Source of the DNA: a virus
Virus genome (UHGV): UHGV-0210060
Reading direction: 5' to 3' (one strand)
DNA length: 40,776 bases
The first letter of the stretch is position 1. Each line of letters starts with the position of its first letter. Below the pieces are notes generated by a model. That model was not told the origin of the DNA, searched no databases, and saw only the letters and a program-made list of their open reading frames with translations. The position numbers and the translations under genes were made by a program. Shown piece after piece: positions 1,020 through 2,711 of the stretch.

Positions 1020-1194
1020 CGTCTTCTTCCTCGTACATTGAGCTATTCGGATCGCTCATCAGTTCTGCGCAGCAATCGGAGCACACGTGAACTTCCAGCA
1101 CATGCAGCTTCTGACCGCAGTTAGCGCACGTTAAAGCTCGCTCGACGCTTTCTTTCTGGTATTGAAGGGATTGGGATGGGATAAGCATTAACAA
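1012..1194 (-). CDS. ninF: NinF
   Basis: 60 aa; [45 protein letters not shown] nearly matches lambda NinF. Confidence 0.85.
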   Translation of the reverse strand: MLMLIPSQSLQYQKESVERALTCANCGQKLHVLEVHVCSDCCAELMSDPNSSMYEEEDDE

Positions 1195-2155
1195 CCTCCA
1201 TACAAACTTTCACGAATGCCGTTGCTACTTCTGCATTGATTGCGTTTCCATATCCAATAATTCGCTGATCTTGATTGCGCTTTGCCATTCTTCCCAGTGT
1301 GGACTTGCCTCGTCCCAAGCTTTTGGCAATGCCATTAACCATCGGGAATGAGCCGGGTCTAACTGGACGATATTTTTCATCTCTACAGTAAAGCCAGTCT
1401 GCATCTCTCCAGAAGCCGTTAACCGGTAATGGGTACATAGCTTCACCGTCCCGGGAAGTTTCAAGCAGATTCTTGGGGTTCCGCTCTTGTCTTTTCCGCT
1501 GTAGCAATGCGTTGAACCTGTTGCATCGTTCGCTAAAGGAGTTTGCCATCCCGCTAGTCTCACGCATCCAGATAGGTTCTGAATTCCCCTGCGCGTTTCT
1601 GGCTGAAAGTTGATATTTGTCGTTGGAGTAGGCCACCCAATACAATCGCTGCCTGATGTGCGGAGAACCGAAGCCCGCAGCGCAAATATCGGTACCTGCA
1701 GAGGTGTAGTTCGCACCTTCCAAGTCAGTTTGTACAAGGTCGAGCCAAGCGAGGCCGTCTGCGCTTGCAACCTGTTCGCCAATAACGATGCCAGGATTGC
1801 ATTTTTCAATAAGCCAGAAGAATGCCGGCCATAAGTGCCGCTCGTCATCAACCCCTTTTCCTTTGCCTGCCGAGCTGAAAGGTTGGCATGGGCAACTTCC
1901 TGTCCAGATGCTCTTGTTGTCTGGCCATCCTGCTTTTCTAAGTGCATAGCTCCAAACTCCGATTCCTGCAAAAAAGTGGTGCTGGGTAAATCCTCGCAAA
2001 TCACCTGGTGTGACATCTTCAATACTCCTTTCATCTACATAACCGGGGGCAATTTCTCCAGCGTCAATTAAGTTACGCAGCCATTGCGCTGCATACGGAT
2101 CTATTTCGTTGTAATACGCAGTCATCGTCATTTCCTCGCACGATGTCTTAGCCAC
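1121..2155 (-). CDS. DNA (cytosine-5) methyltransferase, orphan phage type (frame A); overlaps a second long ORF in another frame
   Basis: 344 aa with motifs in canonical order: FFAGIGV (I), GSCPCQPFS (PCQ, IV), IGEQV (ENV-like, VI), [10 protein letters not shown] (QxRxR, VIII), [17 protein letters not shown] (X-like). Start may be an internal Met because of overlap with ninE. Confidence 0.7.
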
Positions 2156-2304
2156 CGGATATCCAACAGGTGAGCCGTGTAATTGAAGGTTTTTACGTCA
2201 GATTCTTTCGGGATTGGCTTGCGTTTATTTCTGGAGCGTTTCGTTGGAAGGTATTTGCAGTTTTCACAGATTATGTCGGTGATACTTCGTCGCTGTCGTC
2301 TCAT
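2128..2304 (-). CDS. ninE: NinE
   Basis: From internal Met: [56 protein letters not shown] matches lambda NinE; ATG overlaps ninB stop (ATGA). Confidence 0.85.
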
Positions 2305-2711
2305 TCGTACCTCCTGTCGGTAAATCTGACGCCCTGACCAATAGCCCATGCTGTCGTGTACTCAATCAGACTTGCCATACGCTTCACACTCATCTGCGCG
2401 CTACTTTCGCGAATGTTGACGTATTCGCCTTCAAGGCCGGGCAAAACATCAGCTTCCTGCTTTGTTGCCACTGCATGACCGCTAATCAACAAAACCTTCC
2501 ATTGTTCTGGTTTTAACCACTTATCGCACCATTGAACCTGACGTGCGATATCCGCCAGCATCGCGTGAAATTTTGCGTTCTGGTCAAGGTTGCGCTTGTA
2601 GTCAGTAATGCGGATGGTGACTGGCTTGTCTTTATCGAGTGGTGTTGCGAGGATGGCGTTGATTGCGGCTTGCTGTTGTTGCTTAGTTCGGAGGAATATT
2701 GTTTGCTTCAT
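2301..2711 (-). CDS. ninB: NinB (Orf-family recombination mediator)
   Basis: 136 aa; pattern ..RNLDQN.K..A.L.D..RQV.W...WL..E.WK resembles lambda NinB. Confidence 0.8.

Follow-up and report, generated by a model that had tools for sequence, protein, structure and literature searches.

The window analysed here is the whole 40,776-nucleotide (nt) stretch of the UHGV virus genome UHGV-0210060. Between positions 1121 and 2155 it holds a gene for a putative C5 DNA methyltransferase, inside which a second long open reading frame (ORF) lies in another frame, and it is this pair, frames A and B, that is described in the following. According to the ORF listing of the window both are located on the minus strand over the same DNA, at the positions that had been given in a first-pass annotation made from the sequence alone, and all of the motifs quoted there for the two frames are present as well. 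The ORFs, the genes derived from them (alpha and beta) and the start signal of beta are as follows:

1121–2155, minus strand: frame A ORF, 344 amino acids (aa) from a GTG codon
1225–2034, minus strand: frame B ORF, 269 aa, offset from A by 121 nt, which corresponds to the +1 frame
1121–2125, minus strand: alpha gene (frame A), predicted catalytic subunit of a C5 DNA methyltransferase, 334 aa, 37.6 kDa
1225–2016, minus strand: beta gene (frame B), nested +1-frame ORF, 263 aa, 29.0 kDa
2025–2031, minus strand: Shine-Dalgarno sequence AAAGGAG of beta, followed by the 8-nt spacer TATTGAAG (2017–2024) and the ATG at 2016–2014

The likely start of alpha is the ATG at 2125; the sequence GAGGA is found 7 nt upstream of it, and homologues begin at the equivalent of M11. 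Residue numbers of the alpha motifs are counted from the ATG at 2125 and those of the beta motifs from the ATG at 2016. Beta is located entirely within alpha, sharing 792 of its 1005 nt (79% overlap), and the 263-aa product is identical to the database protein P0001.

Dual coding was analysed on 80 viral contigs together with annotated phage loci, comprising 42 non-redundant lineages with less than 85% frame-A identity to one another. As the null, synonymous codons were shuffled within each gene, so that protein A and the codon usage were kept. In all 42 non-redundant loci, at about 51–57% frame-A identity, the +1 frame was open over 262–348 codons; the +2 frame of loci in this range of identity was open over only 34–79 codons. 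The open +1 run expected from the null was about 100–150 codons on average and the observed one exceeded it at P ≤ 0.01 in each of the 42 lineages, whereas the +2 frame equalled the null. For the gene in the window, 300 permutations gave a +1 run with a mean of 101 and a maximum of 214 codons versus the 269 observed, in line with the remark of the first-pass annotation that a second open frame of this length is unusual, and a +2 run of 49 codons versus 54 observed.

Furthermore, the sequence of frame B is conserved and not only its openness. Outside the overlap, pairwise nucleotide identity at positions 1, 2 and 3 of the frame-A codons was 0.81, 0.79 and 0.51, and inside the overlap it was 0.75, 0.87 and 0.76; the rise at the alpha wobble position from 0.51 to 0.76 shows that this position is constrained only within the overlap. 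Along alpha residues 181–240 the identities of 0.45–0.57, 0.67–0.87 and 0.75–0.89 follow the periodicity of frame B, and frame A is poorly conserved there. Mean frame-B identity to the window was 0.56, versus 0.31 after synonymous resampling of the homologue codons; in the nine lineages shown, every resample stayed below the observed value. Resolved along the protein, beta residues 41–125, 126–195 and 196–240 were above all nulls in 40, 39 and 40 of 40 homologues, respectively. In the same 40 homologues residues 1–40 and 241–263 were not above the nulls, and these two ends (1897–2016 and, for the last 23 residues, 1225–1296, minus strand) are thus not conserved beyond the level forced by frame A.

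Among 15 close relatives (96.5–99% frame-A identity) 18 variable sites were found in the overlap, only 2 of which alter both proteins, compared to an expected share of 54% (binomial P = 2e-4). The density of variable sites in these relatives was 0.023 per nt in the overlap versus 0.057 outside. Together these comparisons show purifying selection on both frames throughout a very broad phage family. That frame B might be conserved only passively, through constraint on frame A, was considered as well and is ruled out by the resampling nulls. Two of 83 loci, both from IMG/VR contigs, deviate from the common pattern: in one (L055) frame B is interrupted (187 codons) and A is intact, in the other (L077) frame A is interrupted (56 codons) and B is open (258). 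These could be decaying copies or assembly errors.

The start of beta is conserved to a similar extent. A GGAG Shine-Dalgarno core is found 8 nt before the +1-frame ATG in 42 of 42 non-redundant lineages, and the extended start motif GA(Y)GAA(A/C)GGAG(Y)AT(W)GARG-ATG occurs in all 42 loci, including Vibrio, Erwinia and epsilon15 phages. In frame A this signal is encoded by the codons of the alpha residues D-E-R-S, with a rare Arg codon (AGG or CGG; AGG in the window) and a Ser codon AGY (AGT in the window). The pattern points to an independent translation start of beta.

A tblastn search of phage genomes with frame B returned 243 records with 40–57% identity over about 90% of the length. These share their loci with the frame-A matches and lie in the same +1 register relative to them; in Erwinia phage 59, for example, A is 51.5% and B 52.6% identical. 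The first-pass annotation had named as a refutation of its observation that frame A would align end to end with intact homologues and frame B would give low-complexity matches only. The former is the case, but the latter is not, considering the length and identity of the frame-B alignments. An exhaustive frame-B profile search yielded 15,901 representatives of 50% identity clusters, 7,117 of them at E ≤ 1e-30, and the family is present in about 220 phage records and at least 599 viral contigs. ORFs resembling frame B have been called independently by gene callers 2,785 times, none of them with a Pfam domain. In every full-length family member that was tested, the frame-B hidden Markov model (HMM) matched the +1 frame, as in the following +1 segments:

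Burkholderia PhiBt-E264.1: 394 codons, E 5e-88
Rhodobacter RcMcDreamy: 355 codons, E 2e-49
Erwinia SNUABM08: 327 codons, E 2e-49
K1G: 230 codons, E 2e-46
Myovirus HdK5: 197 codons, E 9e-27
Paenibacillus phage Lily: 165 codons, E 2e-7

The observed openness was reached in 0 of 500 permutations for HdK5, K1G, Erwinia SNUABM08 and Lily. For the GC-rich Rhodobacter phage, with a null mean of 235 codons, the permutation gave P = 0.07. For the Burkholderia phage it was run on the annotated coding sequence in frame B and shows only that both frames are open, the A-containing one over 441 and B over 394 codons. In the outgroup phages Moonbeam and Trax no frame-B HMM match was obtained in any frame, and the openness of the +1 frame was non-significant (178–193 codons).

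Alpha carries the C5 methyltransferase motifs I, IV, VI, VIII and X in canonical order. Its parts are listed here:

1631–1975, minus strand: catalytic core of alpha from motif I to motif VIII (motif coordinates, AlphaFold, hhalign)
1958–1975, minus strand: motif I, FFAGIG, residues 51–56
1874–1894, minus strand: motif IV, CPCQPFS, residues 78–84
1769–1780, minus strand: motif VI, GEQV, residues 116–119
1631–1654, minus strand: motif VIII, RQRLYWVA, residues 158–165
1244–1618, minus strand: linker from motif VIII to X, residues 170–294, of low confidence and with one conserved block
1337–1420, minus strand: conserved block in the linker, residues 236–263, family identity 0.67
1226–1255, minus strand: motif X, residues 291–300, including GYGNAI, in a helix with a predicted local distance difference test score (pLDDT) of about 82

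Frame A matches Pfam PF00145 above the gathering score (E 6e-14), the match being limited to residues 83–225, and alpha matches the DNA methyltransferase family phrog_363 (E 3.5e-91). A PDB sequence search aligned alpha to M.HhaI over motifs IV–VIII, and the top Foldseek matches were M.HhaI, M.HaeIII, DNMT2 and DNMT1 (E down to 2e-8, about 180 columns). The confident parts of the AlphaFold model are residues 1–169 and the helix of motif X (pLDDT 70–84), and the modelled core and the Foldseek matches agree on the Rossmann-type fold of the large domain. Taken together, alpha is predicted from sequence and model to be the catalytic large domain of a C5 methyltransferase and to carry out C5 methyl transfer.

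The PDB sequence and fold matches of alpha are confined to this large domain. Residues 170–294 have a pLDDT of 25–33, and the hhalign alignment of the frame-A family to single-chain enzymes ends at residue 172. An element resembling motif IX was not found in frame A, including the stretch where frame B carries one, just as the first-pass annotation had noted for that stretch; alpha thus does not combine a target-recognition domain and motif IX with motifs VIII and X in one chain. In short family members (alpha of 254 aa in Lily and 274 aa in K1G) about 55–85 residues separate motifs VIII and X, too short a stretch for alpha to hold a target-recognition domain. The conserved block at 1337–1420 may be a docking surface for beta. 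This same segment (minus strand) is the site of the strongest double constraint in the gene, with the alpha block (0.67) lying over the beta block RLT..GEM...QLNPAHSRWL (0.68). At the end of the overlap the stop codon of beta falls within motif X of alpha.

Beta consists of three conserved parts:

1654–1881, minus strand: N-terminal conserved block with the sub-blocks 1828–1881, 1717–1746 and LRASVLRTS (1654–1680), overlapping alpha motifs IV–VIII
1507–1638, minus strand: target-recognition-like modules, GWPTPTTN at 1615–1638 (residues 127–134) and a second one at 1507–1551 (residues 156–170)
1312–1365, minus strand: putative motif IX, residues 218–235, aligned to RL.PAFSEWMMGWPAGW of single-chain enzymes

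In the N-terminal block frame-B identity is 0.57 versus 0.31 in the null and lies above every null in 40 of 40 homologues. In the module region it is 0.63 versus 0.28, and frame-A identity is 0.34 there. The layout is the same throughout the frame-B family, a conserved N-terminal block (GSTLYK.TWK ... RASV.RTS) being followed by one to four tandem GW.TP.A.D modules and a C-terminal block that begins RLT..GEM.TG..VEM. One GW.TP module is present in K1G, HdK5 and Lily, two in the window, three in the Rhodobacter phage and four in epsilon15 and the Burkholderia phage. Gains and losses of modules coincide exactly with the poorly conserved region of frame A, and the length of the alpha linker varies along with them. 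The variable number of modules could correspond to different or multiple methylation specificities. No match to frame B was found in Pfam or NCBIfam; beta matches the PHROGs phrog_1008 and phrog_31772, both of which are labelled "DNA methyltransferase" with no functional explanation attached.

The relation of the two chains becomes apparent from the comparison with single-chain enzymes of actinophages, such as Mycobacterium phage Moonbeam gp69 and Gordonia phage Trax gp78. These resemble alpha in the catalytic core and the GN(G/A)V motif X, and beta in modules of the LLPTP.A.D type and a motif IX of the form L.P.F.EWMMG.P.GW, but differ in that all elements are found in one reading frame. In Moonbeam gp69 the elements LLPTPSAADGGGG, LLSTPQARDYKG, RLHPAFPEWMMGWPAGWVT and GNGVVPQQA follow motif VIII, all in one frame. 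The matches of the two families were as follows:

Frame-B HMM (hmmsearch): Moonbeam gp69 residues 250–336, 12.1 bits; best of 500 shuffles 3.7 bits (0 of 500 reach the score)
Frame-B family (hhalign against a 40-sequence family profile): 210–336, corresponding to beta residues 151–242, 94.7%, E 5.7e-8
Frame-A family (hhalign against the same 40-sequence profile): 25–167, the catalytic core, 99.5%, E 1.5e-22
Frame-A HMM (hmmsearch): motif X of Moonbeam gp69 as a second matched segment

In the hhalign alignment the modules of beta correspond to the in-frame LLPTP.A.D modules of the single-chain enzymes. By these alignments a single-chain enzyme is tiled by A in its N-terminal, B in its middle and A again in its C-terminal part. 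Since the target-recognition domain lies, by definition, in the variable region that separates motifs VIII and IX, and frame B maps there, beta would bear recognition-like modules together with motif IX. This complementary mapping bears out two suggestions of the first-pass annotation, that both frames have methyltransferase-like elements and that the C-terminal element of frame B is the one preceding motif X, i.e. motif IX. A Pfam scan of the chimera A(1–166)/B(131–234)/A(271–334) was uninformative because the Pfam model stops short of motifs IX–X even in single-chain outgroups; the match to Moonbeam, for instance, ends at profile position 161 of 324.

Several known systems share single aspects with this locus. 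In the dcm-vsr pair of E. coli K-12 the second gene, which codes for the repair endonuclease Vsr, begins in the 3′ end of the C5 methyltransferase gene in another frame and overlaps it by a few codons. The locus in the window is unlike this pair, as beta overlaps 79% of alpha and lacks any Pfam domain, including Vsr; for the latter reason, the reading of beta as a Vsr-like repair gene that overlaps the methyltransferase gene is ruled out. The Bacillus phage enzymes M.SPRI, M.Phi3TI and M.Rho11sI are multispecific single polypeptides with tandem modular recognition units, the number of which varies between phages, and beta is like them, by description only, in its tandem modules of varying number. 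In M.AquI of Agmenellum quadruplicatum, a natural split enzyme, the two genes are not nested. The locus differs from that type in that motif X is located in alpha and beta is fully nested. The two chains of M.AquI reconstitute activity (Karreman & de Waard 1990; PMC3404938), and the split lies in the variable region, the beta chain holding the distal variable region and motifs IX and X (PMC3404938).

The closest counterpart is M.EcoHK31I of E. coli HK31 (Lee, Kam & Shaw 1995, Nucleic Acids Res 23:103), which was compared by its published description as given in two later papers. It is a two-polypeptide C5 methyltransferase whose beta gene lies wholly inside the alpha gene in another frame (PMC2836561, PMC3404938). 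Alpha is described to contain motifs I–VIII along with X, as well as the target-recognition domain, and beta motif IX (PMC2836561, citing Lee et al. 1995 and Fung et al. 2006); activity depends on both chains, and beta needs its N-terminal part in order to associate, although its first ~42 residues are dispensable (PMC2836561). In PMC3404938 only M.AquI and M.EcoHK31I are listed as exceptions to monomeric C5 methyltransferases, and M.EcoHK31I is the sole enzyme with a nested layout described in the literature that we found, the principle having been known since 1995.

Measured against this description, the locus agrees in the nested same-strand beta in another frame, in an alpha lacking motif IX and in a beta carrying it. 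Alpha is of about 38 kDa in both cases, as taken from the plasmid name pET3a-M38 for M.EcoHK31I (PMC2836561) and calculated as 37.6 kDa for the locus. Beta residues 1–40, which are not conserved above the null, form a suggestive parallel to the ~42 dispensable residues reported for M.EcoHK31I beta (PMC2836561). Differences, likewise relative to the published description, are the larger beta (29 kDa versus about 23 kDa, the latter from the plasmid name pET3a-C23), the solitary position in a phage nin region as opposed to a restriction-modification system, and the very large family as opposed to a single characterised enzyme.

Selection on both frames, the conserved start of beta and the complementary mapping on single-chain enzymes lead to a model in which the locus, most probably, encodes a two-polypeptide alpha/beta C5 methyltransferase from a single stretch of DNA. 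Thereby, translation of frame A from about position 2125 would give the 334-aa alpha chain, the catalytic, S-adenosylmethionine-binding domain with motifs I, IV, VI, VIII and X, in which the stretch between motifs VIII and X would be a poorly structured linker. The internal AAAGGAG, separated by 8 nt from the ATG at 2016, would start +1-frame translation of the 263-aa beta chain. Its C-terminal half would represent the "small domain", with tandem GW.TP recognition-like modules and then motif IX, and its N-terminal conserved block probably docks beta onto alpha, in analogy to M.EcoHK31I beta (PMC2836561). Both chains would be made, associate into an active solitary phage methyltransferase and both be needed for its activity, with beta setting the specificity; the presumed role of the enzyme is the shielding of phage DNA from host restriction. 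A wider proposal is put forward more tentatively, as a real possibility to which we would lean slightly less than to its opposite: the family may be a very large and practically unannotated class of phage and prophage obligate heterodimers in which the whole recognition small domain (one to four modules plus motif IX) is a separate +1-frame chain and the catalytic frame provides only a disordered linker there.

A number of observations do not fit the two-chain model smoothly. The target-recognition domain of M.EcoHK31I is assigned to alpha in the published description, whereas the recognition-like modules of the locus are found in beta; the equivalent region of alpha in the locus is unconserved (identity 0.34), modelled as a low-confidence linker and of frame-B periodicity. 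The homology of beta to single-chain enzymes, though significant, is moderate (94.7%) and concerns the C-terminal half of beta only. The frame-B profile has no PDB sequence match at E ≤ 10 and no Pfam or NCBIfam model. Beta alone was predicted by AlphaFold with a low pLDDT of 44, which would be expected of a domain that folds only against its partner or DNA and is uninformative as to the fold. Finally, alpha residues 236–263 are strongly conserved within the supposed linker and could be a DNA-binding element of alpha itself.

Three other explanations were weighed. Frame B might be a real, selected overlapping gene whose function is unrelated to methylation, e.g. an overprinted anti-defence or regulatory gene, with which the dual coding, solid in itself, is compatible. 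The missing Pfam, NCBIfam and PDB matches of beta, its largely low-confidence AlphaFold model, as is typical of overprinted proteins, and an N-terminal half with no counterpart detected in the single-chain enzymes all agree with such an origin. However, the C-terminal half of beta is homologous to the variable region and motif IX, precisely what alpha lacks, and overprinting de novo would not recreate such motifs. Moreover, the characterised precedent has motif IX in the nested beta, as described in PMC2836561. We therefore regard an unrelated function as improbable.

Still less probable, and clearly so, is a single chain produced by programmed frameshifting, with translation of A up to motif VIII, a +1 shift into B and a −1 shift back to A for motif X. 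The A/B/A order obtained in this way does reproduce the motif order of the single-chain enzymes, but two programmed shifts would be needed, and no slippery heptamer or homopolymer is located near alpha residues 166–175 or 270–300, the sole heptamer being found at alpha residue 61 (344-aa numbering). Frameshifting would also leave unexplained the conserved internal Shine-Dalgarno sequence and ATG, the selection on beta residues 41–125 upstream of the first junction, and the conservation of alpha residues 236–263 between the supposed junctions.

An artefact, which the first-pass annotation had considered in the form of coincidence, sequencing indels or indels that compensate each other in the target-recognition region, is not excludable from one sequence alone, and long chance frames do occur in GC-rich relatives (the Rhodobacter null mentioned above, the non-significant 178–193 codons of the outgroups), but it has a negligible probability: the window gene has a GC content of about 50% and none of its permutations attains the length observed, the layout recurs with the same +1 register, internal Shine-Dalgarno sequence and ATG in 42 of 42 independent lineages, in very distant phages and in 11 complete E. 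coli genomes, codon periodicity switches to frame B in mid-gene, and the frame-B sequence is conserved above the null with both frames selected.

Annotation pipelines discard long same-strand overlaps of bacterial and viral genes, which are still held to be rare in bacteria and the viruses that infect them. A 263-codon gene within a 334-codon gene, with both frames selected from phages of Firmicutes to those of Proteobacteria, is a clean and testable example, and suggests that the nested alpha/beta design is common in phages. In the literature searched, with REBASE and subscription journals outside its scope, no description of the nested gene of this phage family was found. Surprising to a specialist would be how widely the pair occurs and how deeply it is conserved, that the overlap amounts to 79%, that the recognition modules have moved into the nested frame and that annotation is lacking almost everywhere. 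If the wider proposal of obligate heterodimers is true, the pair would be among the longest and most deeply conserved same-strand overlapping genes known in prokaryotic viruses and a dual-coding solution to evolving methylation specificity, in which gain or loss of modules could reprogramme or multiply the specificity with catalysis untouched. In practical terms, recoding or codon optimisation of the annotated "DNA cytosine methyltransferase" would destroy beta and the enzyme could be inactive, and for such prophage enzymes the assignment of methylomes to genes and the prediction of specificity would look in the wrong protein.

Gene callers choose A or B variably; as a result, "hypothetical proteins" number in the thousands, and in one phage record or more B alone is annotated. 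Only frame A is annotated in the inspected Erwinia, Vibrio, epsilon15, HdK5, Rhodobacter and Erwinia SNUABM08 records. The same holds for the 11 E. coli genomes, where frame A, as "DNA cytosine methyltransferase", is the only one among the features listed under the match. The reverse of this usual error is found in Burkholderia PhiBt-E264.1, where only frame B (1199–2383 of locus L088) is annotated, as a 394-aa "putative metabolic enzyme", and the catalytic frame A, with a stop-to-stop segment of 441 codons, is unannotated. In two phages the nested ORF has already been annotated, in K1G as gp35 "ORF30" (1283–1975 of locus L087) inside gp34, and in Lily as gp63 "g62 internal gene" (1451–1942 of locus L090). 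Both are labelled "DNA methyltransferase" in RefSeq, and no functional explanation is attached.

With respect to the genome context, the gene is located in the nin region, downstream of NinB and between a NinE-family gene and NinF; other neighbours are a RusA-like protein and a small nin-region protein (524–814) with a match to a PHROG that bears the label HNH endonuclease. The scan of the flanking genes revealed no restriction endonuclease, and on this gene content the predicted enzyme is a solitary phage methyltransferase and not part of a restriction-modification pair. The window represents a P22-like E. coli phage or prophage, with morphogenesis genes about 95% identical to those of phiv205-1, Kapi1 and CUS-3. 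In the 11 complete E. coli genomes the methyltransferase gene is present as well, about 99% identical to that of the window. Upstream of alpha lies the NinE-family ORF (2128–2349, minus strand). An alternative alpha ATG at 2131 overlaps its stop codon as ATGA, and the alpha start at 2125 comes 3 nt after this overlap (2125–2131, minus strand). The overlap and the close alpha start suggest translational coupling of alpha to NinE. At the other end, the NCBI protein for the alpha gene has only 316 aa (P0121), and the true C-terminus of alpha may vary among strains. The C-terminal tail of alpha (residues ~316–334; 1121–1188, minus strand) is unconserved and of low confidence, and shares about 68 nt with the beginning of NinF.

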